From Candidatus Parcubacteria bacterium (GTDB lineage: Bacteria; Patescibacteriota; Patescibacteriia; Patescibacteriales; UBA12075), in NCBI GenBank assembly GCA_023132155.1, contig JAGLYP010000002.1, positions 6,598 through 70,597 on the forward strand: a stretch of DNA of 64,000 nucleotides, in the 5' to 3' direction. Made by a program: the position numbers and the translations under genes. Of this stretch, positions 8,255 through 64,000 are shown in pieces. The notes below the pieces were generated by a model that had not been told where the DNA came from, ran no database searches, and saw only the letters and a list, made by a program, of their open reading frames with translations. Position 1 is the stretch's first letter. Each line of letters opens with the position of its first letter.

Positions 8255-9622
8255 ATGTCTAATAATATTAAAAAAATCAATAAAAACAGGGATATTTTAT
8301 TGAGGCGCGCGCTTTGGGTAATTGTGCCGTTTTTGCTTGCTATTTTAGCGCTGGATAAGGTTAGCTTAATAACAATTTTTGGAATATTAGCAGTTTATTT
8401 GATTTTTGTCTTTGCCAAAGATAAAATTTGGTATCTATTGGTATTGGCGGTGCCAAGCCTTGTTTTTGGAAAAATTTTATATATTCCAATTACCAATACC
8501 TGGGTATACGAAGCTCGTTTCGCGGAAGTCTTTTTGGGCATGGTTTTAATAGTTTTTATTTCGGATGTATTTTTAAATAATAAAATAATAAATTTAAAAT
8601 TTGATAAGATCAGTTTTGGGCTGCTTATTTTTTTAATCGCGTCGCTTGCTTCAATATATTCGGCGCTTGACTTTCGTTTGTTTGTTTTTGCTTTAAAAAC
8701 AATTGTTTTTAGTTTTTTAGCTTATTTTTTGGCTTTGAATTTGCTTGATAATAAAAAGAAAGTCTTTTATTTTTTATACAGCATGGCAATAACCGGAATG
8801 ATTCTTAGCGCGCAAATTTTTTGGAAATTTTATCAGATGGGCTTTTCAATTGATTTCTTTTTTAATCGTTCCGATATTTTAATTCCAATCGGGCCGATTG
8901 CCACGACCGCGGCAATTTTAACTTTTTTAGCGCCGATACTTTTGGCTTTTTATTTTCAGCTTAATGATTTGAATAAATGGAAGCCGTTTGTGTTTTTGGG
9001 ATTTTTTATGAGTTTTTTCGCGGTTTTTTTAACTTTAGGAAAAGGCGCGATTATCAGTTTGTTTTTCGGCTTGTTTGTGGTTTTTTGCATGCATAAGCAG
9101 AAAAGAATTGCTTATATTTTATTTTTTATGTGGTTCGCGGCCTTGCTGTATTTCGGTTTTCAGCCCTATTTTGCCGGATTGTTCGAGCGGTTTAAAACTA
9201 CCTTGGTTGATGTCAACACGGAGTTTAGAGTGAAAGAGTATAAGTTAAGCTTTGATTTAATTAAGAATCATCCATGGATGGGGGTTGGCGTCGGCCAGCA
9301 ATTGTATTATTATAAAAAGATTCTTAATCAAGAGCAAGGTAATTTTGTAAATAATTTTATTTTGCAAACCGTAATTGATCTAGGGCTAGCCGGCCTGTTT
9401 TTGATGTTATTTATAATTAAAAATATTATAAAAAAAATAAAAGATGTTTGGCGCGCGGGCGGGAAAGAATCGGTTTTAGTTATCGGTTTTATTGCCGCAT
9501 TTGCCGCCGCGTTTTTAAACGGTATGGTAGAAGTAACGATTTATGCCTTGCCTTACGCGATTGTTTTTTGGTTAACGCTTGGAGTTTTTGAAAATGCCGC
9601 GGAAAGGGAGGAAAAACCATGA
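8255..9622 (+). CDS. O-antigen ligase/polymerase-like (Wzy_C-type) polytopic membrane protein
   Basis: 455 aa with about 10-12 hydrophobic helices and a periplasmic loop carrying HPWMGVGVGQ, typical of the O-antigen ligase family. ATGA overlap with the next gene. Confidence 0.65.
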   Translation: MSNNIKKINKNRDILLRRALWVIVPFLLAILALDKVSLITIFGILAVYLIFVFAKDKIWYLLVLAVPSLVFGKILYIPITNTWVYEARFAEVFLGMVLIVFISDVFLNNKIINLKFDKISFGLLIFLIASLASIYSALDFRLFVFALKTIVFSFLAYFLALNLLDNKKKVFYFLYSMAITGMILSAQIFWKFYQMGFSIDFFFNRSDILIPIGPIATTAAILTFLAPILLAFYFQLNDLNKWKPFVFLGFFMSFFAVFLTLGKGAIISLFFGLFVVFCMHKQKRIAYILFFMWFAALLYFGFQPYFAGLFERFKTTLVDVNTEFRVKEYKLSFDLIKNHPWMGVGVGQQLYYYKKILNQEQGNFVNNFILQTVIDLGLAGLFLMLFIIKNIIKKIKDVWRAGGKESVLVIGFIAAFAAAFLNGMVEVTIYALPYAIVFWLTLGVFENAAEREEKP

Positions 9623-10461
9623 AAAAATTATCAGTTATAATAATTAATTACGGCACGGCAGAGATGACGGAAAAGGTTATCAAGAATTTTATTGTTAAAG
9701 AAAAGTCTTTAAGTTATGAAATAATTTTGATTGATAATAAGTCTGTTGAAAAAATTAATGAAAAGAAATTTTTGGATTTGGGCGCGGAATTAATTAAGAA
9801 TCAAGAGAACCTAGGCTTTGCCAAAGCTGTTAATCAAGGAATAAAACGCGCCCAAGGAGAGTATATTTTATTATTGAACTCCGATGTATTTATTAAGGAA
9901 AACGCTATTTCTAAAATGATTGAATATTTAGAAAGCGATTTGGACGCGGCAATAGCCGCCCCGAAAATATTTTTCCCGAATGGAAGAGTACAAATTAGCG
10001 CCGGAAGATTTCCAAATTTAACAAGGGAATTTTTGCGTTTGTTTAAGCTGTATAATCTAATTCCAAAATCCACTTTAATGAGTAAAAATGAAATGGAAAG
10101 CCATCGCGAGCGCGAAATTGATTGGGTAAGCGGCGCGTGCATGCTTTTTAAACGGGAGTTGACGGACAAAATCGGTTTTTTTGATGAAAAATATTTTTTA
10201 GGGGTTGAAGATATTGATTTTTGCTATCGCGCGCGAAAAAAAGGCTTTAAAAATATTTATTATCCAATGTCAACAGTAATCCATTATCACGGATTTTCGT
10301 CCGGCGGAACTGCGGCAATCAAACGCATTAAATATGATCGAGATGGCATGATATATTTTATGCGAAAGCATTTCCCGAAAAAAGTTTTTAGTTGGATATT
10401 AATCAAACTAATGCATGATTTGAAAATTTTTTTTCTTTTCTGTCATTCCTGTAAAAGTTAA
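9619..10461 (+). CDS. family 2 glycosyltransferase
   Basis: N-terminal SVIIINYG, then IDN.S and LLLNSD (DxD region), then EDIDFCYRA. The last codons run into a GTCATTCCTG word resembling the repeat-element terminus. Confidence 0.8.
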   Translation: MKKLSVIIINYGTAEMTEKVIKNFIVKEKSLSYEIILIDNKSVEKINEKKFLDLGAELIKNQENLGFAKAVNQGIKRAQGEYILLLNSDVFIKENAISKMIEYLESDLDAAIAAPKIFFPNGRVQISAGRFPNLTREFLRLFKLYNLIPKSTLMSKNEMESHREREIDWVSGACMLFKRELTDKIGFFDEKYFLGVEDIDFCYRARKKGFKNIYYPMSTVIHYHGFSSGGTAAIKRIKYDRDGMIYFMRKHFPKKVFSWILIKLMHDLKIFFLFCHSCKS

Positions 10462-10490
10462 TTCATTGACAAAAAAACTCTCTTTTATTT

Positions 10491-10699
10491 GTCATCCTGG
10501 AATTTTTATCGTAGCGACAGCGGAGATAAAAATATCCGGGATCCAGGAGCGCGAGAATTAACTGATAATTAAAATTAACTAATGCCACGTATTAATTTAT
10601 TTATGTAATTGGTCATAATATAATAATTATACATATTACCCCTGGATCCCGGATATTTTTTCTTGTCGCTATCGCTCCAAGAAAAAATTCCAGGATGAC
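10491..10699. mobile_element. miniature (ORF-less) copy of the hairpin-armed GIY-YIG-associated element (copy A)
   Basis: Left arm GTCATCCTGGAATTTTTATC...GATAAAAATATCCGGGATCCAGG (10491-10547). Right arm CCTGGATCCCGGATATTTTTTCTTG...CAAGAAAAAATTCCAGGATGAC (10641-10699). The arms are inverted copies of each other and each folds on itself. AT-rich core of about 90 bp with no ORF. Confidence 0.7.
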
Positions 10700-10782
10700 A
10701 AAATATAGAGGTTTATTAATTTTTGTCAACGGATTTGGTTGACAATATTCAAGACATTAAAAAATTAAAAGCTAGTATAACA

Positions 10783-11781
10783 ATGAAATTAAAAATAACA
10801 CAAAAAAAATATACCCCCAAAGACGCGACAATCGCGGTTACTTATTTTTGCAATTCGCGCTGTAGAATGTGCAATATTTGGCAGGATAAAAATCCGCGGA
10901 GTTTGAAAAAGGAAGATTTTTATAACTTAAGTCCTGATTTAAGATATATTAATTTATCAGGCGGAGAGCCTTTTCTGCATCCTGAATTGCCGGAAATTGT
11001 CCGTATTATAAATAAAGTCAGTCCAAAAGCGAAAATTATCATATCCAGCAATGGATTGGCAACCGGCTTGATTATAAAAACGATGAAAGAGATTAAAAAA
11101 ATTGATTCGCGTGTTGGTATTAGAATTTCAATTGACGGATTGCGAAAAACCCATGATCGTATGCGTGGGATTGATGGAATATATGAGGCTGCTATGAAGA
11201 CGCTTGCCGGTCTTAAGATAATCGGCATTAAAAATTTAGGATTAAGTTTTACGATTATGAATGAAAATGCTGATGAATTGAAAGATATATATAATTTGTC
11301 AAAAGATTTGCAAATTGAATTGGCTTTGGCCTTGGTGCAGAATTCTGAAATATATTTTACAAAAAATGACAACCAGTTAACTTATATTGATAAAGTTAAG
11401 AGCGGCCTGAATTATATTATTAAGCAAGAATTAAAAAGCGCGAACCCAAAGCGCTGGGGGCGAGCTTTTTATGATTACGGTTTGCTAAAATACGCGGAAA
11501 GCAAAGAACGCCTGCTAAAAAGCGGCGCCGCTTACGATTCTTTGTTTATTGATTCCTTGGGAAATGTTTATCCCAGTAATTTGATAAATTTGAAATTAGG
11601 CAGCATCAAAAAAGACAAGCTGGACAATATCTGGCGGTCTGGCAAAGCGCAAGCGGTTCGCGATAAAATAGAAGCGGAAAATATCACGGAAAGCTGGATA
11701 ATTTGTACAATCCGCGGCGAGATGAAAAAAAATATATTTAAGGTTTTGTTTTGGGTGTTAAAGAATAAGTTATGTGTGTAA
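10783..11781 (+). CDS. radical SAM protein in glycan locus
   Basis: CNSRCRMCNIW (CxxxCxxC) near the N-terminus, then GGEPFL. The track starts at TTG 10723; I prefer ATG 10783 because 10723 lies just after the repeat element. The start is uncertain. Confidence 0.7.
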   Translation: MKLKITQKKYTPKDATIAVTYFCNSRCRMCNIWQDKNPRSLKKEDFYNLSPDLRYINLSGGEPFLHPELPEIVRIINKVSPKAKIIISSNGLATGLIIKTMKEIKKIDSRVGIRISIDGLRKTHDRMRGIDGIYEAAMKTLAGLKIIGIKNLGLSFTIMNENADELKDIYNLSKDLQIELALALVQNSEIYFTKNDNQLTYIDKVKSGLNYIIKQELKSANPKRWGRAFYDYGLLKYAESKERLLKSGAAYDSLFIDSLGNVYPSNLINLKLGSIKKDKLDNIWRSGKAQAVRDKIEAENITESWIICTIRGEMKKNIFKVLFWVLKNKLCV

Positions 11782-11871
11782 TGCTAATAATGCGAATAAA
11801 TGCTAATTTGCTAATTGCGAATACTATTCATTAGCAATTCGCAAATTAGCATTTATTCGCGGAATTAGCAT
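11781..11871. repeat. imperfect 91-bp palindrome, family P2 (GCGAATAAATGCTAAT words)
   Basis: ATGCTAAT..GCGAATAAATGCTAATTTGC...GCAAATTAGCATTTATTCGC..ATTAGCAT fills the whole spacer between the radical SAM stop and the GT4 start. Confidence 0.6.
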
Positions 11872-21918: not shown

Positions 21919-22284
21919 ATGACTCTCCATATAGACACAAGCAAAAATAATTTAATATATCTGGCCTTAAAAAATGGCGATGAATTAATTTTGGAAAAGA
22001 AAATTACCGTGCGATATAATCAAGCGGAAAAATTATTGCCCGGAATTGATGAGATTTTAAAATCGGCAAATAGTGATATAGCGAAGATTCAAGAGATTAT
22101 AGTTGTTAATTCAGGCGAGGGTTTTACTGCCTTAAGAATTGGCATAATTACGGCAAACGCGCTTGGTTTTGCTTTAAATATTCCGGTTTTTAGCAGTGAT
22201 AATAAGCAGATAAAAAGTAATTATGATTTTAGCGTTATTGAGCCAAAATATAAAAAAGAACCTAATATTACAACAAGGAACTAA
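21919..22284 (+). CDS. tsaB: TsaB-like protein (N-terminal domain only)
   Basis: 121 aa. IDTS at the N-terminus and SGEGFTALRIGIITANALGFALNIPV (cf. GPGSFTG[LV]RIG of TsaB). The last two codons and the stop (AGG AAC TAA) lie inside palindrome P1a. Confidence 0.55.
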   Translation: MTLHIDTSKNNLIYLALKNGDELILEKKITVRYNQAEKLLPGIDEILKSANSDIAKIQEIIVVNSGEGFTALRIGIITANALGFALNIPVFSSDNKQIKSNYDFSVIEPKYKKEPNITTRN

Positions 22285-22359
22285 GTACCTACGATTTCTT
22301 TTGTTAACTTGGGTTTTAAAACCCAAGTTAACAAAAGAAATCGTAGGTACTTAGTTCCT
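22276..22359. repeat. perfect 84-bp palindrome, family P1 (copy a)
   Basis: AGGAACTAAGTACCTACGATTTCTTTTGTTAACTTGGGTTTT | AAAACCCAAGTTAACAAAAGAAATCGTAGGTACTTAGTTCCT. Two 42-nt arms with no mismatch and no loop. Confidence 0.95.
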
Positions 22360-24204: not shown

Positions 24205-25068
24205 ATGAAAATCGCTAAAGTAAAATTTATTGATTGGGACAAAGAATATAATTTTTCTTTTAATGGTTTGGAATTGAAAGAAGGCGACAAGGTGGTGGTT
24301 AAAACCGAATTAGGTTTGGAGCTGGGTGATGTTGTTGGTTTTAGCGATTTGGATGATAGTGAATATGTTTTGGAAAGTGAAGCGGGCGAGACCGATGAAA
24401 ATGGCGAGCAGACGGAAAAAAATATTATAAAACCGATATTAAGAAAGGCGGTATTGCGTGATTTAGAGAAAATGGTGTCTTTTGATGAAAAGAAAGAGGC
24501 TTTGGAAGTTTGCCGTAAAACCAAGGATCGGCATGATTTGCCAATGAAATTTATTGATGTTCATTATTCTTTTGACGGTTCTCGCGTTACTTTTGCTTTT
24601 ATTGCCGATGGCCGGATTGATTTTCGCGAGTTAGTAAAAGATTTAACAAGGCATTTTGGCAAAACCATTCGTTTGCAGCAAATCGGCATTCGTGATGAAG
24701 CGAAAATAATGGGCGATGTCGGCCATTGCGGGCAAAGACTTTGTTGCCGCGGGCATTTAAAAAATTTAGAATCAATAACATCGGAGATGGCGGATATCCA
24801 GGGTTGCGCCCATCGCGGTTCTGACAGAATCTCCGGAGTATGCGGGCGATTGATGTGCTGTCTGGCTTATGAACAGCGCGGGTATGAGGAATTGGTTAAG
24901 AATTTGCCGCCCATTGGAGCCAAGGTTAATGTTGACGGTAAGCGCGGAATTGTTGTCGGCCATAATCCCTTAAAACAAGCGGTTAAGGTTGAGTTTCAAA
25001 GCGATGGTGAAAATGGCGGCAGGGTTGTTGTTGAAGTTGATTTGAATCGGCATAAAAAACAGATATAA
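24205..25068 (+). CDS. PSP1 C-terminal domain protein (RicT/YaaT-like)
   Basis: ILRKA..RD, the IRLQQIG region, and the Cys cluster CGQRLCC...CGRLMCCLAYE. Confidence 0.7.
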   Translation: MKIAKVKFIDWDKEYNFSFNGLELKEGDKVVVKTELGLELGDVVGFSDLDDSEYVLESEAGETDENGEQTEKNIIKPILRKAVLRDLEKMVSFDEKKEALEVCRKTKDRHDLPMKFIDVHYSFDGSRVTFAFIADGRIDFRELVKDLTRHFGKTIRLQQIGIRDEAKIMGDVGHCGQRLCCRGHLKNLESITSEMADIQGCAHRGSDRISGVCGRLMCCLAYEQRGYEELVKNLPPIGAKVNVDGKRGIVVGHNPLKQAVKVEFQSDGENGGRVVVEVDLNRHKKQI

Positions 25069-25169
25069 TGCCAATCTGCGAATAAATGCTAATCTAGCGA
25101 ATTGCTAATATAATATATTCGTACATTAGCAATTAGCGGCATTCGCGTTTATTCGCAGATTGGCATTAT
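25065..25169. repeat. 105-bp palindrome, family P2 (copy b), shared by convergent genes
   Basis: Outer 22-bp arms are perfect (ATAATGCCAATCTGCGAATAAA / TTTATTCGCAGATTGGCATTAT); the inner part is imperfect. Shares the GCGAATAAATGCTAAT and GCGAATTGCTAAT words with 11781-11871. Confidence 0.8.
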
Positions 25170-27110
25170 ATTTTTTATAAATTTAAAAATATAAACCTCG
25201 CCATTGTCAATTTTTTGCCAAGAATCGGCTTCAAGTTTTGCTTCGGCAAGAATTTTATCAAAAGCCCACCAGTATTTATTTAAAACAAAATATCCGGTGT
25301 TAACCCCAACTAAATCCATGGCGGCTTCCATTGTTTTTTTATTTGGCTTTTTGTAAACCATATCTAAATAATACAGATAAAGACTGCCGCCGGTTGGAAT
25401 CGGGTAATAAAAAATTTCTTCTTCAGCGCTTTGATAATATTTTTTAAAGCCAAAACTGTAAAGGCTGGCAACGCTGGTTTGTTGGTTAGCTAAAACAACA
25501 AAATCTTCTTTTGTATTATATTCTATCCATTTAACCGCGTTTAAATCGCTTTTGCCAACTGAATAGCCGTGAGAATTAAAGTAATGGTCATAGCGCGGAT
25601 AAGAAAAATATAAAGATACGCATATTAGTAGACAGAAAAAGCCTAGAAGCGAGTATTTGATAACTTTATTTTGCGCGAGTATTTTTATTATTAATTGATA
25701 AAAAGCGATTACAATAAACGGTAGCAGAAAAAAGCAGGCCGAAGTTAAAATTCGCTTGCTGTAATTTGCTTGTTCATAGTTGATAAGAAAAGCAAAAGAA
25801 AGTTTTGTGCTTAAAAGGTAGGAAGAAAATAACGCTAAGGATGAAAAAAAATAGAGTGCTAATATTCGGCATTCTTTTTTGTGTTTCAGAGCGATAATTA
25901 TTCCGCTGATAACAAAAAATATTAAAATATATTTAATATTAAATATGAAAAAATATACTGTATTTAAAATGATATTTTCTTTGTCTGGGAGAGAAAATTT
26001 TAAGCAGCTAAAAGAAAAAGTTTCCTGGCTTGTTGAAATGTCTGCCGGTTTTTTTGTATTTTTTTCAAAAAAGAAAAAAGCTAAAGGAAGAGCCAATGCT
26101 AGACTTGAATAAATTATAAAATATCCAAATTTTTTAATTTTTAGCTTGTTATTATAAATTATGATTAAACAGCTGAAAAGCAGAGCGGGAATACCGGCAA
26201 GCGGATGGATAAAAAAAGCGGTCGCGGATAATAAAAAGATGTTTATATAATCAAGAGCGTATTTGCACTTAAGCGAGTAGGCCAGAGTTAAAATTAAAAA
26301 GACGTAAGCTAAATTTTGCGGAGTAGTAACAATTAAAAAAGAAAAAGGCAATATTAATAAAAAAAGAATTGATAGTTGAATAATTTTTTTGTTTTCCAGC
26401 CATTTTGTCAGAACTGAAAGCATAGCGGCCGGTAAAATTATCCCCCCAAAAAAAGGAACTAAAATTTTATCTAAATAAACGATTGGAATTAACGTAATTT
26501 TATTCAGCACCACCACTAAAGCGTATTGTCCTAAATAATAAAATGGCTTAGGATTGACTTCGCCGGTTTTACTGATTAACTCTTCGGTAGCTTGGTGGAT
26601 GAAGGGATCAAAACCATAACCGATTTTGTATATTATTAAAGCAATTGAAAAACTTAAGAAGTAATGAAAAATTATTAAAAGATTTGCCAAGGGCTTGTTT
26701 TTGATGATAATAAACATCAAACAAGCGGTAAGCATAAAGTATAGCGCGTAAAAAATATAGGGGATTGTCTGCCAAGGTGAAATAATAGCTTCTGCTGTTC
26801 TTGAGATAAACAATATATAAGCGGACGCTGTAAATAAAAGCAGATATATAATCGGGGCGAAAAACGCAAAAAAAGTTTTTTTCCGCTTTTCTGTTTTTAT
26901 AATGTTTGTTTTTGGTTTGATTATTATTTGCTTGTTGAATTTTTTTGTAAAGCGGAGTATAATTATAAATGATAAAAAGGCTAATATTAAAATAATAATT
27001 ACGCCGGTAATATTTAATTTATATAGGCGATAGATAATTGCTCCCCAAGAAACAAAAAGACTGAGGGCAATCAGAAGATATTTTAAGATTTTATCAAATT
27101 TAATTGGCAT
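25149..27110 (-). CDS. large polytopic membrane protein, function unknown (possibly GT-C-like)
   Basis: 653 aa with more than 12 hydrophobic helices and a soluble C-terminal domain. The last six codons (IMPICE) and the stop lie inside palindrome P2b. Confidence 0.45.
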   Translation of the reverse strand: MPIKFDKILKYLLIALSLFVSWGAIIYRLYKLNITGVIIILILAFLSFIIILRFTKKFNKQIIIKPKTNIIKTEKRKKTFFAFFAPIIYLLLFTASAYILFISRTAEAIISPWQTIPYIFYALYFMLTACLMFIIIKNKPLANLLIIFHYFLSFSIALIIYKIGYGFDPFIHQATEELISKTGEVNPKPFYYLGQYALVVVLNKITLIPIVYLDKILVPFFGGIILPAAMLSVLTKWLENKKIIQLSILFLLILPFSFLIVTTPQNLAYVFLILTLAYSLKCKYALDYINIFLLSATAFFIHPLAGIPALLFSCLIIIYNNKLKIKKFGYFIIYSSLALALPLAFFFFEKNTKKPADISTSQETFSFSCLKFSLPDKENIILNTVYFFIFNIKYILIFFVISGIIIALKHKKECRILALYFFSSLALFSSYLLSTKLSFAFLINYEQANYSKRILTSACFFLLPFIVIAFYQLIIKILAQNKVIKYSLLGFFCLLICVSLYFSYPRYDHYFNSHGYSVGKSDLNAVKWIEYNTKEDFVVLANQQTSVASLYSFGFKKYYQSAEEEIFYYPIPTGGSLYLYYLDMVYKKPNKKTMEAAMDLVGVNTGYFVLNKYWWAFDKILAEAKLEADSWQKIDNGEVYIFKFIKNIMPICE

Positions 27111-51075: not shown

Positions 51076-52125
51076 ATGGAAGATTTTTATATTATAAAAA
51101 TTTTATTTTTTACGGCCTTGGCTTTTGTTTTTACGATTGCGTGGACTCCGCTTTTAACTTATTTTTTGTATAAATATAAAATCGGCAAACAAATCAGGGA
51201 TGACGGTTCAACTCCGTTTTTTACAAAATTACACGCCCACAAGGCAGGCACGCCGACAATGGGGGGATTGTTAATATGGGGAACGGTTTTAATATTTAGT
51301 TTAGCCTTTTTTTATTTAGCAAAGTTTTTGCCATGGGAAATATTCAAGCAATTGAATTTTTTATCGCGCGCGCAAACTTTATTGCCGCTTGGCTGTTTAG
51401 TGGCTTCCGCTCTTGTAGGACTGGCTGACGATTATCTTGATGTTAAAAAAATGGGGTATAAAAAAAGAGGTATAAAATTTATGAATAAATTATTAATATA
51501 TACCTTTATTGCCCTTGTTGGAGCGTGGTGGTTTTATTTTAAGTTGGATTGGAGCCTTATTCATATTCCTTTTGTCGGTTTTGTGCAACTGAATTTATGG
51601 TATATCCCATTTTTTATCGCAGTTGTGGTTGGAACGGCTTTTTCCGTAAATCAAACCGATGGTTTGGACGGTTTGGCGGGCGGCACGCTTTTGAGCGCTT
51701 TTGCTTCATACGCGGTAATCGCTTTTGCGACAGGCAAATACGACTTAGCTGTTTTTTGCGGCGTGATTACCGGTGCTTTATTGGCTTTTCTTTGGTTTAA
51801 TATTAATCCCGCGCGTTTTATTATGGGTGATACCGGTTCAATATCTTTGGGAGTAACATTGGCTTTAGTGGCTTTATACACTAATACGGTTTTTATATTG
51901 CCGTTTTTAGGGTTAATTTTTGTGATAGAAGCTTTGTCTACTATTGTTCAGATTTTATCCAAGAAATTTCGCGACGGTAAAAAAGTTTTTTTGTCAGCGC
52001 CAATTCATCATCACCTTGAGGCCAAGGGCTGGCCGGAACCGAAAATCGTAATGCGCTTTTGGCTTTTATCAGGAGTTTTTTCCGTTGTCGGTTTGATTAT
52101 ATTTTTATTGGATAAGACTTTATAA
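51076..52125 (+). CDS. mraY: phospho-N-acetylmuramoyl-pentapeptide transferase
   Basis: KAGTPTMGG, NQTDGLDGLA, GDTGS and APIHHH motifs. Confidence 0.95.
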   Translation: MEDFYIIKILFFTALAFVFTIAWTPLLTYFLYKYKIGKQIRDDGSTPFFTKLHAHKAGTPTMGGLLIWGTVLIFSLAFFYLAKFLPWEIFKQLNFLSRAQTLLPLGCLVASALVGLADDYLDVKKMGYKKRGIKFMNKLLIYTFIALVGAWWFYFKLDWSLIHIPFVGFVQLNLWYIPFFIAVVVGTAFSVNQTDGLDGLAGGTLLSAFASYAVIAFATGKYDLAVFCGVITGALLAFLWFNINPARFIMGDTGSISLGVTLALVALYTNTVFILPFLGLIFVIEALSTIVQILSKKFRDGKKVFLSAPIHHHLEAKGWPEPKIVMRFWLLSGVFSVVGLIIFLLDKTL

Positions 52126-52133
52126 TTATTAAA

Positions 52134-52187
52134 GAGACTAAGTCGCTACCCCGCCTCTCGCGAGAGGCGGGGTAGCGACTTAGTCTC
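52134..52187. repeat. perfect 54-bp palindrome, family P3, in the mraY-ftsW spacer
   Basis: GAGACTAAGTCGCTACCCCGCCTCTCG | CGAGAGGCGGGGTAGCGACTTAGTCTC. Confidence 0.95.
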
Positions 52188-53386: not shown

Positions 53387-54493
53387 ATGATTAATAAAAA
53401 GGTCAAAATAATATTAAGTGGGGGCGGTACCGGCGGGTCGGTTACGCCGCTTTTGGCAATGGTTGATTTGTTGAAGCGCGGAAAGTTTGAAAGGCATACT
53501 GAAATTGAATTTCTTTGGATTGGGACTAAAGACGGGCAGGAAAGGCAGTTGGTTAACTCGTCTGGAATTCGGTTTATGTCTATACCGGCGGGTAAATTAA
53601 GGCGTTATTTGTCATTGCAAAATTTTTTGGATTTTTTTCAAATTTATCTTGGTTTTTGGCAGTCTTGTTATATTATTTTAAAAGAAAAACCAAATTTAAT
53701 TATTAGCGCGGGTTCATTTGTGAGCGTGCCGCTTGCGTGGGCGGCATGGTTTTTACGCGTTCCGGTTTTGATCCATCAGCTTGACGCGCGTCCGGGGCTG
53801 GCTAATAAATTAATGGCTCCGTTCGCAAAAACAATTTCAGTAATTTTTAAAAAGTCTTTGGCGGATTTTGGGAAAAAGGCGGTTTTAACAGGCAATTTGA
53901 TTCGCAAGGAATTTATTGAAAATAAAATCAGTAAGCGCGAGGCAGCGCAAAAAATCGGCATGCGGACAGATAAACCGATTTTGCTCGTTATCGGCGGTGG
54001 AACAGGAGCGGGAGCGATTAATGATTTTATTTTGGAAAATATAAGCAGTTTGACAAAATTTTGCCAGATTTTGCATATAACAGGCAAAGGCAAGTCAAAC
54101 AAAAAAATGGAAGAAATAATGGAAAAAAATTCCGGTTATAAATTTTTTGAATTTTTAGATGCTTTCGGTTTAATCAAGGCGTTTGCCGCAGCGGATATTA
54201 TTATTTCACGCGCCGGAATGGGCACCTTAACCGAATTATCCTACATTGCCAAACCGGCAATTATAATTCCCATGCCGAATTCGCATCAGGAAGAAAACGC
54301 TGAAATTTTTTCCAAGGAAGAGGCGGCCGTAGTTTTAAATCAAAAAGAATTGGATGGCGAGGTATTGCTAAATAATATAAAAAAGATTTTAAAAGATGAG
54401 GAGTTAAGAAATAAATTAAAAAATAATATTAAAAAAATTATTAATACGGAGTGTGGGGATGAGATTTTTAATATTGTTAAAGGATTGATTTGA
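53387..54493 (+). CDS. murG: UDP-N-acetylglucosamine--N-acetylmuramyl-(pentapeptide) pyrophosphoryl-undecaprenol GlcNAc transferase
   Basis: GGGTGGSVTP at the N-terminus, VIGGGTGA, and SRAGMGTLTEL. Confidence 0.9.
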   Translation: MINKKVKIILSGGGTGGSVTPLLAMVDLLKRGKFERHTEIEFLWIGTKDGQERQLVNSSGIRFMSIPAGKLRRYLSLQNFLDFFQIYLGFWQSCYIILKEKPNLIISAGSFVSVPLAWAAWFLRVPVLIHQLDARPGLANKLMAPFAKTISVIFKKSLADFGKKAVLTGNLIRKEFIENKISKREAAQKIGMRTDKPILLVIGGGTGAGAINDFILENISSLTKFCQILHITGKGKSNKKMEEIMEKNSGYKFFEFLDAFGLIKAFAAADIIISRAGMGTLTELSYIAKPAIIIPMPNSHQEENAEIFSKEEAAVVLNQKELDGEVLLNNIKKILKDEELRNKLKNNIKKIINTECGDEIFNIVKGLI

Positions 54494-54519
54494 GAAATTG
54501 CAGTTTGATTTTCTCTCTT

Positions 54520-55000
54520 GTCATCCTGGGGCTTGACTGGAGCAACAGCGCGCCCAACGGAAGTGCCCTTGGGGTAGAAGTCAAGAACCCGGGATCCAGG
54601 AGAAAAAGCTCAAACTATAAATTAATTTTCAAAGACGAAAAAAGAATACATTTATTACACATACATTTTAGCAAGCAAAAGAAACGGGACATTATATATA
54701 GGAGTAACAAACAGTTTATATTCAAGAATATTACAACATAAGCTAAAACAAAATAAAAACAGTTTTACGGCAAAATATAATACAGATAAACTTGTTTATT
54801 ATGAAGAATATCAAAATATTCAAGACGCGATAGCCCGTGAAAAAAAATTAAAAAGATATAAAAGACAGTGGAAAATAGAATTGATTGAAAAGGATAATCC
54901 CGTTTGGAGAGATTTTTTTAAAGACATGGAATGAGCTTTTACCCCTGGATCCCGGATATTTTTATTTCCGCTGCCGCTCCAATAAAAATTCCAGGATGAC
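54520..55000. mobile_element. hairpin-armed element carrying a GIY-YIG nuclease ORF (copy B, putative autonomous copy)
   Basis: Left arm 54520-54600 (GTCATCCTGGGGCTTGACT...AGTCAAGAACCCGGGATCCAGG). Right arm 54944-55000 (CCTGGATCCCGGATATTTTTATT...AATAAAAATTCCAGGATGAC). The termini are inverted repeats, shared with copies at 10491-10699 and 62851-63000. Confidence 0.75.
54626..54934 (+). CDS. GIY-YIG nuclease (UPF0213/YhbQ-like), open frame without a canonical start codon
   Basis: Translation is ..KKEYIYYTYILASKRNGTLYIGVTNSLYSRILQHK...KYNTDKLVYYEEYQNIQDAIAREKKLKRYKRQWKIELIE... (GIY...YIG, catalytic R, E). No ATG/GTG/TTG between the upstream in-frame TAA (54623-54625) and the domain, so it is missing from the ORF track. 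Confidence 0.7.
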   Translation, partial: FSKTKKEYIYYTYILASKRNGTLYIGVTNSLYSRILQHKLKQNKNSFTAKYNTDKLVYYEEYQNIQDAIAREKKLKRYKRQWKIELIEKDNPVWRDFFKDME

Positions 55001-55037
55001 AAAAAACGGGAACATTCGTTAAAATGACAAAAAATTT

Positions 55038-56339
55038 ATGAAAAATTGCAGCTTAATTATAAAAGGAAAATATGTTTTAACAATGGATGACAAAATGTCT
55101 GTTTTTAATGATGGGGTTGTGGCGGTTGATGATGATGAAATAATAGCAATTGGCGAAAAGGAAATTTTAGAAAAGTACAAGAGTGAAAAAATTATTGATG
55201 CGGGAAACAGTATTATTATGCCGGGGCTGATTAATACGCATACGCACGCGGCCATGGCGTATTTTCGCGGGTTAGCTGATGATTTGCCTTTGCCGGTATG
55301 GTTGGAAAAGCATATTTGGCCGGCTGAGGCTAAATATGTTAATAAGAATTTTGTTAAAAAGGCTTCAGCGCTTGCTTGTTTGGAAATGATAAAATCGGGA
55401 GTTACTTGTTTTAATGATATGTATTTTTTTGAACAAGAAACCGCTTCGGTTGCAAGCCGGATCGGAATGCGCGCTTTAATCGGCGAAGTAATATTGGATT
55501 TTCATACGCCAAGCTGTAAAACTCCAAAAGAAGCGCTGAAAAAAACAGAAGAAATGATATTAAAATATAAAGACAGCGAATTAATTTCAGTGGCAGTCGC
55601 GCCTCATTCTATCTATACTTGTTCAGAGGAAAATTTAAGCAAATCGAAAGAATTAGCAGACAAATATTCAATTAATTTGCATATACATATAAGCGAAACT
55701 GAAAAAGAAAATAAAGATTGTTTGAGAGATAATGAAAAAAGTCCGGTTAAATATTTGGATGAGCTGGGAATTTTGAATAATAAAACAATTGCCGCGCACA
55801 GTATTTGGCTTGATGATGAAGATATTGAGATATATAAAAATAGGCAGGTAAAAATAAGCCATTGCCCGATTAGCAATATGAAATTAGCCTCCGGTATTAT
55901 GAATTTTAAAAAAATGCGTGAATCGGGTTTGGTAATCAGTTTGGGAACGGACGGCGCGGCAAGCAATAATACTTTGGATTTATTTTCTGAAATGCGCGCT
56001 TGCGCTTTATTGCATAAAGTAAACAATTTGAATCCGGAAATAGCCTCTGCAACTGAAATCGTAAAAGCCGCGACAATTAACGGCGCCAAGATCTTGGGAA
56101 TGGATGATAAAATCGGTTCGCTTGAAATTGGCAAAAAAGCTGATATAATAACTGTTAATTTGAATAAGCCTCATTTGACCCCGATTTATAATCCATGTTC
56201 GCATTTGGTTTACGCGGTTAATTTAGCGGATGTGGAGAATGTGATTGTTAACGGCAAGCTGATTATGCAAAACAGGGAAGTTTTGGGTTTGGATGAGGAT
56301 AGAATATTAGAAGAGGCATGTAAGTTCAAAAGGAACTAA
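55038..56339 (+). CDS. mtaD: amidohydrolase, 5-methylthioadenosine/S-adenosylhomocysteine deaminase-like
   Basis: MPGLINTHTHAAMAYFRGLADDLPLPVWLEKHIWPAE, HISET, and GTDGAASNN. The last two codons and the stop lie in palindrome P1b. Confidence 0.75.
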   Translation: MKNCSLIIKGKYVLTMDDKMSVFNDGVVAVDDDEIIAIGEKEILEKYKSEKIIDAGNSIIMPGLINTHTHAAMAYFRGLADDLPLPVWLEKHIWPAEAKYVNKNFVKKASALACLEMIKSGVTCFNDMYFFEQETASVASRIGMRALIGEVILDFHTPSCKTPKEALKKTEEMILKYKDSELISVAVAPHSIYTCSEENLSKSKELADKYSINLHIHISETEKENKDCLRDNEKSPVKYLDELGILNNKTIAAHSIWLDDEDIEIYKNRQVKISHCPISNMKLASGIMNFKKMRESGLVISLGTDGAASNNTLDLFSEMRACALLHKVNNLNPEIASATEIVKAATINGAKILGMDDKIGSLEIGKKADIITVNLNKPHLTPIYNPCSHLVYAVNLADVENVIVNGKLIMQNREVLGLDEDRILEEACKFKRN

Positions 56340-56414
56340 GTACCTACGATTTTTTTTGTTAACCTGGATTTTAAAATCCAGGTTAACAAAAAAAATCGTA
56401 GGTACTTAGTTCCT
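56331..56414. repeat. perfect 84-bp palindrome, family P1 (copy b)
   Basis: AGGAACTAAGTACCTACGATTTTTTTTGTTAACCTGGATTTT | AAAATCCAGGTTAACAAAAAAAATCGTAGGTACTTAGTTCCT. Fills the whole mtaD-murC spacer, ending 2 nt before the murC ATG. Confidence 0.95.
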
Positions 56415-62328: not shown

Positions 62329-62706
62329 ATGAAGAAAATTTTTTACGGAGTTTTTATTGCAATTTTTTGCGCACTGTTTATCGTCCCGGCCATGGCAGCG
62401 GATGTACTTGTCCCAACGGCATCTGGCAATGATGTAATTGTGCCGCATACTCTTATTGAGACGATTGATGGTTGGGAGGAAGGCGAGGTACAATGTGCTT
62501 TCCATGACCTGGTTGGTGCAAAATCCCGAGTACCTATGAATAGGCGGGGTAATAACTGGATCATCATAGGTGGCCATGGAGCCGACATCCATCCTGTCGT
62601 CGTGATAGACGGCAAGGATAATTGGACCAAGCTGGAAAATCTTTGGTCCATGACTTCGGACTTCGTCAAATATCGGGATGCTGGTCCTTGTATTCATGTT
62701 GATTGA
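62329..62706 (+). CDS. small secreted hypothetical protein
   Basis: GGAGG RBS and a signal peptide ending AMAAD. G+C-enriched relative to the flanks. Confidence 0.45.
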   Translation: MKKIFYGVFIAIFCALFIVPAMAADVLVPTASGNDVIVPHTLIETIDGWEEGEVQCAFHDLVGAKSRVPMNRRGNNWIIIGGHGADIHPVVVIDGKDNWTKLENLWSMTSDFVKYRDAGPCIHVD

Positions 62707-62740
62707 TCTCTTTTGCCCGGCCCGACAACGGCCGCTTCAA

Positions 62741-62781
62741 GGGGTATTTCGCTTGTATTTTAAGCGAAATACCCTTTTTTA
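62741..62781 (+). terminator. rho-independent terminator
   Basis: GGGTATTTCGCTT gtatttt AAGCGAAATACCC followed by TTTTTT. Confidence 0.8.
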
Positions 62782-62850
62782 TTTTTCCTGATTTCAATAA
62801 AATATTTAATTTTGCTATAATAAATCGTAAGAGCCTTTTCATTTCTTCAT

Positions 62851-63000
62851 GTCATTCCATGGGCGCGGAGCGCAACCTGGAATCCAGGAGGGCGAGAAAT
62901 AAATAAACAATAACAAATAAGTATAGTACGTGCATCTTACCCCTGGATCCCGGATATTTTTTCTTGTCGCTTAAGTTCCAAGAAAAAATTCCAGGATGAC
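62851..63000. mobile_element. miniature (ORF-less) copy of the hairpin-armed element (copy C)
   Basis: Left arm GTCATTCCATGGGCGCGGAGCGCAACCTGGAATCCAGG (62851-62888). The right arm (62942-63000) is 53/59 identical to copy A's right arm, and all differences fall in the hairpin loop. Confidence 0.7.
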
Positions 63001-63047
63001 AAAAGAGAGGGATGGCGTTGTGCGAATTGTAGTCTAATTATTTTTTT

Positions 63048-64000
63048 ATGAATTTTCATAAATTAAAATCAACCTTAAGAGATTTGCAAGAGCCGAATTT
63101 TCGGTATAAGCAAATCGTAAGCGCCTTTTGCAAGAAAGGAGTTTTGGACTATTCGCAAATCAGCAATATTTCCAAAAAATTGGTAAAAGATTTAAAAGAA
63201 AGAATAAAGCCGCTTAGCTTTAGTGCTGAAAAAATTTATTCCGCAAACAACAATCTTTCCTTTAAAGCGCGATTAAAATTAAATGACGGTGAATTGATTG
63301 AAACGGTTTTTTTATCGCCCTTGCCGGGCGCTTGGTCTGCTTGCGTATCCAGCCAAGCCGGATGCAAGCTTGCTTGCAAATTTTGCGCCACGGGACAAAG
63401 CGGCTTTAAAAGAAATTTAAGCTCTGAAGAAATAACCGATCAGGTAGTTTTTTGGAAGCATTTTTCGCGCGAAAAAAAATTAAACGGCAATTTTTCAAAT
63501 ATAATTTTTATGGGCATGGGTGAACCGTTTATGAATTGGGATGAAGTTAAAAGCGCTATCAAACAATTAGTTGATCCTGAATTTTTCGGTTTTGGCTCCC
63601 GGCATATCTCGGTTTCTACGAGCGGAGTTGTTGACGGCATAAAAAAACTTGCCAATGATTTTCCGCAAGTAAACTTGGCAATTTCATTAATATTTCCCGA
63701 AGATAGTTTGCGCAGTGAGTATATGCCGATAAACCGCAAATTTAATCTTAAAAAATTGCAGTTAGCAATATCTTCTTATTTAAACAAAACTAATCGCAAA
63801 GTTTTTTTGGAGTATGTTATGTTAAAAGGTATTAATGATGATTTAAAACAGGCGGATAATTTGATTGATTTTATAAATACGATTGAAAACGGCAGGAAGC
63901 TGTTGCATGTGAATTTAATTCGTTATAATACAACTATGGTTGAATTTATTCCGTCTGATCTGGGCACGGTAAACAAATTTAAAAATCATTTACTAAGAAA
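63048..64000 (+). CDS. rlmN: 23S rRNA/tRNA (adenine-C2)-methyltransferase RlmN (radical SAM), C-terminus cut by window edge
   Basis: Manual translation gives MNFHKLKSTLRDLQEPNFRYKQIVSAF..., SSQAGCKLACKFCATGQ, MGMGEPFMNW and ISVSTSG. Absent from the ORF track because it runs off the window. Confidence 0.85.
   Translation, partial: MNFHKLKSTLRDLQEPNFRYKQIVSAFCKKGVLDYSQISNISKKLVKDLKERIKPLSFSAEKIYSANNNLSFKARLKLNDGELIETVFLSPLPGAWSACVSSQAGCKLACKFCATGQSGFKRNLSSEEITDQVVFWKHFSREKKLNGNFSNIIFMGMGEPFMNWDEVKSAIKQLVDPEFFGFGSRHISVSTSGVVDGIKKLANDFPQVNLAISLIFPEDSLRSEYMPINRKFNLKKLQLAISSYLNKTNRKVFLEYVMLKGINDDLKQADNLIDFINTIENGRKLLHVNLIRYNTTMVEFIPSDLGTVNKFKNHLLR

Follow-up and report, generated by a model that had tools for sequence, protein, structure and literature searches.

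Results

A hairpin element lies directly upstream of rlmN

The window analyzed here is a 64,000-nt stretch of DNA from a Candidatus Parcubacteria bacterium (contig JAGLYP010000002.1). It contains three related elements (copies A, B and C), each delimited by modules in inverted orientation that consist of TGTCATCCYGG, a variable stem-loop, and CCGGGATCCAGG. Copy C lies immediately upstream of rlmN, whose product contains the Pfam Radical_SAM and RlmN_N domains and is a 100% match to a protein (P0001) named RlmN from a Parcubacteria genome. With the rlmN start codon at 63048, nucleotides 63096–63132 correspond to codons 17–28. An earlier reading of this sequence (hereafter the original prediction) held that a string to the left of copy C is a degraded, frame-broken copy of these codons, such that the element would sit between a decayed and an intact 5′ end of the same gene. 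As described below, the resemblance exists, but it has two parts: ancestral intergenic sequence that was present before the element, and a 15-nt tract copied from rlmN at the left junction of the insertion.

Both strings quoted in the original prediction are present at their positions. When 150–200 nt of left flank were aligned locally with 390 nt of downstream sequence, AATTTT-GCTATAA-TAAATCGTAAGAGCCTTTT (62808–62839) was placed opposite AATTTTCGGTATAAGCAAATCGTAAGCGCCTTTT (63096–63129) with a score of 39, whereas shuffled controls gave means of 18.2–18.6, standard deviations of 2.5–2.7, and maxima of 29–34. A scan of the 34-mer over both strands of the whole window returned the rlmN site as the best non-self match (39; runner-up 26), and the 15-mer core TCGTAAGCGCCTTTT, with two or fewer mismatches permitted, matches the window only at 62825–62839 and 63115–63129. 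Because both copies of the 15-mer are carried by two independent metagenome assemblies of the same organism (loci L042 and L043) besides the NCBI record of the source genome (L041), the similarity is no assembly artefact. The resemblance of the left flank to rlmN is beyond chance and is bound up with the insertion of the element, and in this respect the original prediction was correct.

Element-free relatives define a 205-nt insertion

The original prediction also proposed that rlmN loci in relatives be examined and that empty sites be sought. The closest RlmN relatives (81–86% identity) were located on their own contigs and the orthologous loci were compared with the window. Such sites do exist: loci L034, L035–38, and L040 are element-free and are collinear with the window on both sides of 62825–63029, with nothing between. 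In these loci the small upstream gene, its terminator hairpin, and TTTCAATAAAAT.TTTAATTTTGCTATAATAAAAATAGTTAATATTTTTTTATG lead directly into rlmN. The left match to the window ends at ...GCTATAATAAA (62824), and the right match resumes at TAGTCTAATTATTTTTTTATG (63030). Nucleotides 62825–63029 are a 205-nt insertion, and comparison of its boundaries with the empty sites reveals no target duplication. The leader, the start codon, and codons 1–22 of rlmN are present in a single copy, with no duplicate to the left of the element.

The same comparison separates the supposed relic into two parts. Its first 17 nt, AATTTTGCTATAATAAA (62808–62824), are ancestral intergenic sequence that has remained unchanged, and not a remnant of codons 17–22, because the element-free orthologous loci have the same sequence. 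The longer stretch to which they belong (TTTCAATAAAATATTTAATTTTGCTATAATAAA) is near-identical and unbroken in L034, L035, L036, and L040, where it passes straight into the rlmN leader. Within it lies an extended −10-like box, TGcTATAAT, whose conservation in all relatives suggests that it serves as a promoter; a simple sigma-70 scan of 62650–63150 found no full two-hexamer promoter site. The left string is therefore not a decayed copy of codons 17–28, since 17 nt of it are promoter-like and ancestral and only 15 nt (codons 23–28) are gene-derived. Nor does copy C lie between decayed and intact versions of a gene 5′ end, as codons 1–22, the start codon, and the leader are unduplicated.

The left junction carries a 15-nt copy of rlmN

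The tract that opens the insert, TCGTAAGAGCCTTTT, is without counterpart in the empty sites. Among 85 loci, the 15-mer is confined to rlmN genes and to this junction (L041–L043), and no other copy of the element in this set carries it. Alignment of the left arm with rlmN gives a score of 32 compared with 11.4 ± 2.4 for shuffled sequences, none of which reached 32 in 5000 trials. By our own calculation from base composition, a match at 14 of 15 positions in a fixed register has a probability of about 2e-8, and the value is still about 1e-3 if an arm motif common to the element family is granted. The segment of rlmN that matches the tract is retained in element-free relatives, encodes part of the RlmN_N domain, and is situated about 85 nt downstream of the insertion point in the ancestral sequence (L034 coordinates). 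Conservation of this segment where the element is absent identifies rlmN as the source of the junction tract. Thus, the 15 nt are gene-derived, and the direction of copying was from rlmN to the junction.

The copied tract begins exactly where a microhomology between the promoter-like sequence and rlmN ends (TATAATAAA versus TATAAGCAAA). In the longer form of this resemblance, GCTATAATAAA at the junction and GGTATAAGCAAA in rlmN both directly precede the tract in the same register. The junction therefore has the hallmark of templated filler, in that its tract is copied from sequence close by and begins directly behind a microhomology to the flank.

We considered whether the 15-mer might simply be element sequence and rejected this, since no other copy in the 85 loci has it and the left arm is no significant mirror of the right arm (P=0.65). 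A MAFFT alignment of seven C-type copies is confined to the core. When reverse-complemented, the right arm shows a weak likeness to the rlmN segment that matches the tract (CAATTCGCACAACGCC versus CAAATCGTAAGCGCC, P=0.07).

Table 1. Features of the rlmN locus and of copies A, B, and C. Positions are those of the window.
Feature	Position	Strand	Description
Copy A, long form	10441..10756	+	Degenerate outer ends TGTCATTCC...TTCAAGACA; inner core 10490–10700
Copy B left target duplication, TGAGAAATTGCAGTTTGATT	54491..54510	+	Includes murG stop codon; single copy ATATGAAAAATTGCAGTCTAATT in empty L082, L083, L085
Copy B core	54519..55001	+	Hairpin module, GIY-YIG (Ssn-like) open reading frame 54635–54934, inverted hairpin module
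Copy B right target duplication, TGAAAAATTGCAGCTTAATT	55039..55058	+	Start of amidohydrolase gene (ATG at 55038)
Intrinsic-terminator-like hairpin of upstream 125-aa gene	62739..62777	+	Kept at element-free loci; same hairpin in L034
Ancestral intergenic sequence, TTTCAATAAAATATTTAATTTTGCTATAATAAA	62792..62824	+	Holds extended −10-like box TGcTATAAT (62813–62821) and first 17 nt of supposed relic (62808–62824)
Microhomology R1, GCTATAATAAA	62814..62824	+	Resembles rlmN GGTATAAGCAAA; gene-derived copy begins right after
First 15 nt of insert, TCGTAAGAGCCTTTT	62825..62839	+	14/15 copy of rlmN 63115–63129 (codons 23–28)
Left outer arm, pyrimidine-rich, CATTTCTTCA	62840..62849	+	Adjoins core; comparable tracts in copy B (TTCTCTCT) and L084
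Left hairpin module, short SRM-like, TGTCATTCCATGGGCGCGGAGCGCAACCTGGAATCCAGG	62850..62888	+	
Internal spacer, non-autonomous element	62889..62941	.	Kept in copies from other Parcubacteria (L031, 88% identity)
Right hairpin module, long SRM-like, inverted	62942..63001	-	Minus strand reads TGTCATCCTGGAATTTTTTCTTGGAACTTAAGCGACAAGAAAAAATATCCGGGATCCAGG
Right outer arm, AAAGAGAGGGATGGCGTTGTGCGAATTG	63002..63029	+	Inside insert; without counterpart in empty sites
Ancestral rlmN leader, TAGTCTAATTATTTTTTT	63030..63047	+	Collinear with empty sites
rlmN	63048..64000	+	First 317 codons; window end cuts gene; full protein 341 aa
Template segment in rlmN	63103..63129	+	Microhomology R2 GGTATAAGCAAA (63103–63114), then TCGTAAGCGCCTTTT (63115–63129)

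Architecture of copy C and its module family

The new sequence on the left of copy C is a 25-nt arm, in which TCGTAAGAGCCTTTT is followed by the pyrimidine-rich CATTTCTTCA. The core between the two arms (62850–63001) is short and non-coding, and shares 82–88% identity with copies from other Parcubacteria genomes. Read as its reverse complement, the right arm contains the arm motif of the family, AATTCG..ACAA...CTCTCTTT, and this arm is similar to an arm of copy A (P=0.03) and to arms in the CAZDHZ01 genome. RNAalifold analysis of 30 modules predicts 14 base pairs with a nearly invariant lower stem, and double compensatory changes are present at 7 of the 14. We also considered a structured RNA or ribozyme and rejected it: Rfam at its gathering threshold reported only a tRNA, and at an E-value threshold only sub-threshold matches of the AT-rich type.

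A 20-nt piece of the module was found in 37 metagenome contigs; these 37 loci from the general 20-mer scan include no copy from the source organism, and a metagenome scan with a C-type-specific pattern yielded no further C-type copies. The 20-nt piece (CYCCTGGATCCCGGATATTT) occurs in L001, L005, L007, L011, L030, L032, and L033, which comprise metagenome-assembled genomes (MAGs) labelled Berkiellales, Alphaproteobacteria, Bacteriovorax, and Cloacimonadota as well as Parcubacteria. Its spread across phyla reflects either striking conservation, or horizontal spread or mis-binning. In L082 (430–720), two 22-nt hairpins (GCCCAGGCATGAATGCCAGGGC and an inverted copy) enclose a C-type element, which adjoins another TGTCAT-type module; the arrangement is a NIME-like mosaic of palindromic units.

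The gene upstream of copy C (62329–62706, 125 aa) encodes a product with a signal-peptide-like N-terminus, has no Pfam match, and by eye is higher in G+C than its surroundings. Unannotated genes of 128–134 aa hold the same position in relatives.

Copies A and B have different junctions

Copy B is the only coding copy in the window. Its two modules (54519–54600 on the plus strand and 54944–55001 on the minus strand) flank a reading frame of about 99 codons, a layout that recurs in L008, L019, and L021. The product matches Pfam GIY-YIG (4.6e-15) over residues 7–80 and has no second domain, and neither an NCBIfam match nor a relative in the PDB was found. It is the only reading frame found between the modules, where there is no DDE, HUH, serine, or tyrosine transposase. 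The start position (54635–54637) reads ACG, versus ATG in L008, L019, and L021 (KTKKEY versus KMKKEY), and thus copy B may be inactive or may use an unusual start.

The sequences flanking copy B are identical at 17 of 20 positions, which alone is not above chance. A single copy occurs at each of the empty sites L082, L083, and L085, however, and this proves that the flanks are a true target duplication of about 20 nt. The duplicate spans the first ~7 codons of the downstream amidohydrolase gene. In the three empty sites, the murG stop codon overlaps or adjoins the amidohydrolase start (...GATTTAATATGAAAAATTGCAGTCTAATTATT...), and in copy B the left duplicate retains the murG stop while the right duplicate retains the start of the next gene. 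At an ATGA overlap of this kind, both genes survive an insertion intact only if it duplicates the junction, which is a selection filter and not evidence of targeting. A short non-coding version of the element is present at the same murG/amidohydrolase junction in L084 (82% amidohydrolase identity; element at 393–541), with TGAAAAATTGCAG on both sides and other outer arms. This locus either marks an insertion hot spot or descends from a single old insertion whose gene has since been lost. In L082 and L083, a C-type copy lies upstream of murG; it was examined as a further occupied/empty pair and set aside, as the window has a different gene there.

Two further observations concern the right arm of copy B (55002–55037). 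The terminus ATGACAAAAAA at 54996–55006 is repeated at 55024–55034, and the arm contains AACATTCGTTAAA, which is like the arm motif of copy A in direct orientation. The arm may be a fragment of a second element.

Copy A is an insertion of about 316 nt relative to the empty sites L086 and L087. Its outermost ends are TGTCAT-type sequences, which would agree with, but do not prove, a nuclease cut just 5′ of such a motif. The copy has no detectable flanking duplication, as judged both by flank alignment, which is at chance, and by these empty sites. We therefore rejected the idea that all three copies duplicate a gene end. A glycosyltransferase gene (open reading frame 9619–10461) ends inside the left arm of copy A (10430–10461; ...LKIFFLFCHSCKS*). 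Because this gene ends differently in the element-free loci L086 and L087, copy A supplies its present end; the insertion replaced the last codons and the stop codon.

Insertions do not point to a mechanism aimed at gene 5′ ends

That two of the three elements show flank similarity to the downstream gene, as originally predicted, is true as an observation, with copies B and C showing it and copy A at chance. What fails is the description of copy C as a decayed/intact pair of gene ends. In a family-wide survey of 37 elements, the similarity of left and right flanks exceeded the 95th percentile of a cross-pair null in 9 cases and the 99th percentile in 4, an excess that in part comes from neighboring partial elements in mosaics (L059) and is not a clean count of target duplications. 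One strong case is L002, whose perfect flanking repeat of 21 nt begins immediately past the upstream gene's stop codon; L059 is another.

The further claim of a reproducible mechanism directed at gene 5′ regions is not supported: copy A has no duplicate, and in L002 the repeat follows a stop codon; intergenic sites are in any case expected from selection. In compact genomes tolerated insertions are intergenic and hence near gene starts. The recurrence reflects irregular target duplications and mosaics, and not a mechanism aimed at gene 5′ ends. A fixed-length duplication abutting terminal inverted repeats, as in a classical miniature transposable element with inverted repeats (MITE) derived from an insertion sequence, is likewise not seen: the duplication is absent at copies A and C, about 20 nt at copy B, and 21 nt at L002. 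Variable, non-canonical junctions are a trait of the family.

Relation to known repeat families

The closest described system is that of Chenal et al. (Nat Commun 2025, PMC11893778), who define the NTS repeat (CGTCATTCCCGCGMAVGCGGGAATCYRG) and a wider set of Ssn-related motifs (SRM). SsnA, a small GIY-YIG protein whose gene lies between repeats of this type, cleaves single-stranded DNA immediately 5′ of the motif and on one strand only, and its effect on transformation was shown in Neisseria (PMC11893778). The NTS-ssnA-NTS layout is insertion-sequence-like, and mobility was hypothesized, not demonstrated (PMC11893778).

The elements in the window share with this system a single-domain GIY-YIG protein of ~94–100 aa with inverted hairpin repeats on both sides, and a directional arrangement in which 5′ GTCAT and 3′ ATCCAG(G) stand on either side of a stem (NTS CGTCATTCCCGCGMAVGCGGGAATCYRG against TGTCATCCYGG-stem/loop-CCGGGATCCAGG). 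In both, the repeats far outnumber the gene, are nearly always intergenic, and occur in many phyla, the 20-mer studied here being found in Parcubacteria, Gamma- and Alphaproteobacteria, Bacteriovorax, and Cloacimonadota MAGs. Modules from proteobacteria, such as CGTCATTCCTGCGAAAGCAGGAATCCAGG, resemble Neisseria dRS3. There are also differences. The upper stem in our elements is much longer and more variable (37–94 nt), the modules form MITE-like inverted pairs with extra outer arms, and occupied and empty orthologous sites show insertions where the published work only hypothesizes mobility. The published SRM pattern HGTCWYN(0-2)YYVSBRHN(0-5)WNVSBRGN(0-2)RNCYNB has no match in the window, although an NTS control and the L005 module do match; it misses the window modules because their stem-loops exceed its length limits, while the GTCAT and ATCCAGG flanks are kept. 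Literature searches for GIY-YIG proteins with MITEs or in Patescibacteria, and for the motif strings, found nothing relevant. We have provisionally filed the window elements as a long-stem form of the Ssn/SRM kind.

Other repeat families share some of these traits. Correia elements have defined 26-bp terminal inverted repeats and a TA duplication. Like these Correia-type MITEs and the dRS3/NIME repeats of Neisseria, the elements here are short, palindromic, and intergenic, and form mosaics near gene starts; as in dRS3/NIME, neighboring partial elements create flanking repeats (L059, L082). Unlike those of Correia elements, their junctions differ from copy to copy: the duplication measures 0, ~20, or 21 nt, or there is a templated 15-mer. 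REP/BIME sequences with RAYT (IS200/IS605-like) transposases and REPINs consist of inverted hairpin pairs associated with a single small nuclease gene, and folded single-stranded DNA is what is recognized. They resemble our elements in that hairpin repeats in inverted pairs far outnumber the small nuclease gene they flank and would be recognized as folded single-stranded DNA. The nuclease here, however, is GIY-YIG and not HUH, and we have no evidence for peel-and-paste transposition. The analogy to REP/BIME-RAYT is drawn in PMC11893778 as well.

The window contains further palindromic repeats. Two copies of an 85-nt perfect palindrome (AAGGAACTAAGTACCTACGATTT...AAATCGTAGGTACTTAGTTCCT; 22275–22359 and 56330–56414) are 93% identical with compensatory differences and constitute a separate family. 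Long imperfect palindromes of GCTAAT/GCGAAT-type words (ATGCTAATAATGCGAATAAATGCTAATTTGC...) at 11781–11871 and 25058–25176, one of them directly after a radical SAM gene, make up a third. A perfect G+C-rich palindrome of 27+27 nt (GAGACTAAGTCGCTACCCCGCCTCTCG / CGAGAGGCGGGGTAGCGACTTAGTCTC) occupies 52134–52187, just past a gene that ends at 52125.

Discussion

Origin of the left junction of copy C

The supposed relic is best described as an insertion scar, in which a putative ancestral promoter, a templated rlmN tract, and an Ssn/SRM-type element were joined via microhomology-primed templated synthesis. We assign this interpretation as a whole a probability of roughly 0.58. A 205-bp non-autonomous element entered between the conserved −10-like box and the rlmN leader. 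The left DNA end (TATAATAAA) would have mis-annealed on the rlmN segment at TATAAGCAAA, been extended by about 15 nt on the rlmN template (codons 23–28), and afterwards been joined to the element. The same product could arise by a short-patch template switch or by gene conversion, during or soon after insertion, and a second weak homeology, between the element arm motif and the same rlmN segment, may have helped a template switch. Microhomology-primed templated synthesis is favored because the copy starts exactly where the resemblance between promoter-like sequence and rlmN ends. Whether by break repair or by template switching, we infer both the mechanism and its timing.

Several points weigh against this account. 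An intermediate allele was sought without success: the four places encoding an identical RlmN are all occupied alike, and the next relatives are empty. Because an intermediate is missing, one-step synthesis is inseparable from a duplication followed by a deletion. In addition, the left arm has TCG and GCC at positions that mirror those of CGA and GGC in the right arm, and the two sets pair in a single-stranded DNA fold, such that part of the 15-mer could be element-derived, and the arms of a related copy in L082 contain AAGCCTTCATT, which is vaguely like GAGCCTTTTCATT. The proposed mechanism would also call for a nuclease that breaks a target lacking an SRM. Good documentation of templated filler at repair junctions comes from eukaryotes, and there is much less from bacteria; at microhomology-mediated end-joining and template-switch junctions it has been characterized mainly in eukaryotes, where polymerase theta is involved. 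The junction of copy C is like these examples in that a short tract copies nearby sequence right after a microhomology of broken end and template; it is unlike them in that, for the insertion of a bacterial repeat element, we infer the process.

The closest workable form of the earlier view that the flank holds a decayed gene copy would be a long target duplication of ~96–105 nt, from around position −18 of the leader through codon 28, from which ~85–87 nt of the left copy were then deleted. Slippage between the imperfect direct repeats TATAATAAA and TATAAGCAAA would leave codons 23–28 only. This route gives exactly the sequence seen, and its deletion end points fall at a microhomology of 9–10 nt. 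The element family does make target duplications, as established by the empty sites for copy B and by the perfect repeat at L002. It requires two events, though, and a duplication 4–5 times longer than the ~20–21 nt seen elsewhere; the left end of the deletion must match the left edge of the duplicated segment within a few nucleotides; and no allele that keeps a longer duplicate was found. We regard this route as unlikely.

Less probable again is that chance produced the resemblance. The 25-nt left arm would then consist of element sequence throughout, with a divergent mirror image of AATTCG..ACAA..GCC, the motif of the right arm, followed by a pyrimidine tract, and its resemblance to codons 22–28 would be as accidental as that of the promoter-like sequence to codons 17–21. 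The family arm motif AATTCGCACAACGCC already matches the rlmN segment at 12 of 16 positions, and the pairing of TCG/CGA and GCC/GGC between the arms, together with AAGCCTTCATT in the L082 arms, fits such an origin. Against this stand the ungapped 14/15 match in register with the promoter similarity (~2e-8 at fixed register and ~1e-3 with the family motif granted), the lack of significant similarity of the left arm to the right-arm mirror (P=0.65) or to the arms of copy A (P=0.32), and the absence of the 15-mer from every other copy in the 85 loci.

SXT/R391 elements, which enter the 5′ end of prfC, and phage 21, which enters icd, carry a replacement gene end together with a site-specific recombinase. 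In the original prediction, copy C would act analogously, through dedicated insertion at gene 5′ ends: the native 5′ end would be displaced to one side and decay, and the gene would be intact on the opposite side. Each copy in the window does lie 20–90 nt upstream of a plus-strand start codon, and at two of the three the left flank duplicates sequence of the downstream gene, but we consider this model very improbable: the leader and rlmN to the right of copy C are collinear with the empty loci and thus are the original 5′ end, with nothing supplied by the element, and only the left 15 nt are gene-like; half of the supposed relic is promoter-like sequence and not gene; codons 1–22 at copy C, and copy A altogether, are without a duplicate; the L002 duplication comes after a stop codon; the 205-bp element has neither a gene nor a recombinase; and an intergenic position is the expectation from purifying selection in a compact genome.

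Implications for the Ssn/SRM family

The 15-nt scar is modest in itself, and its value is as the footprint of an insertion. The insertion places 205 structured bases between rlmN and its conserved −10-like box. More broadly, three occupied/empty orthologous pairs (copies A, B, and C) show that a Parcubacteria lineage has undergone insertions of SRM-type hairpin-repeat elements. Their irregular junctions, which show no duplication, a duplication of ~20 nt, or templated filler, bear on whether and how NTS-ssnA-NTS units move, and they point to repair-mediated copying over classical transposition.

We tentatively suggest, as a possibility that we hold with less than even confidence, that Ssn/SRM units are truly mobile in Patescibacteria and insert by break repair or template switching and not by strand transfer of the transposase type. 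If so, this would explain the variable outer arms, the ~20-nt duplications of downstream sequence at copy B and L002, and the 15-nt templated copy of rlmN, and the occupied/empty pairs would be the first insertion footprints of the Ssn/SRM family.

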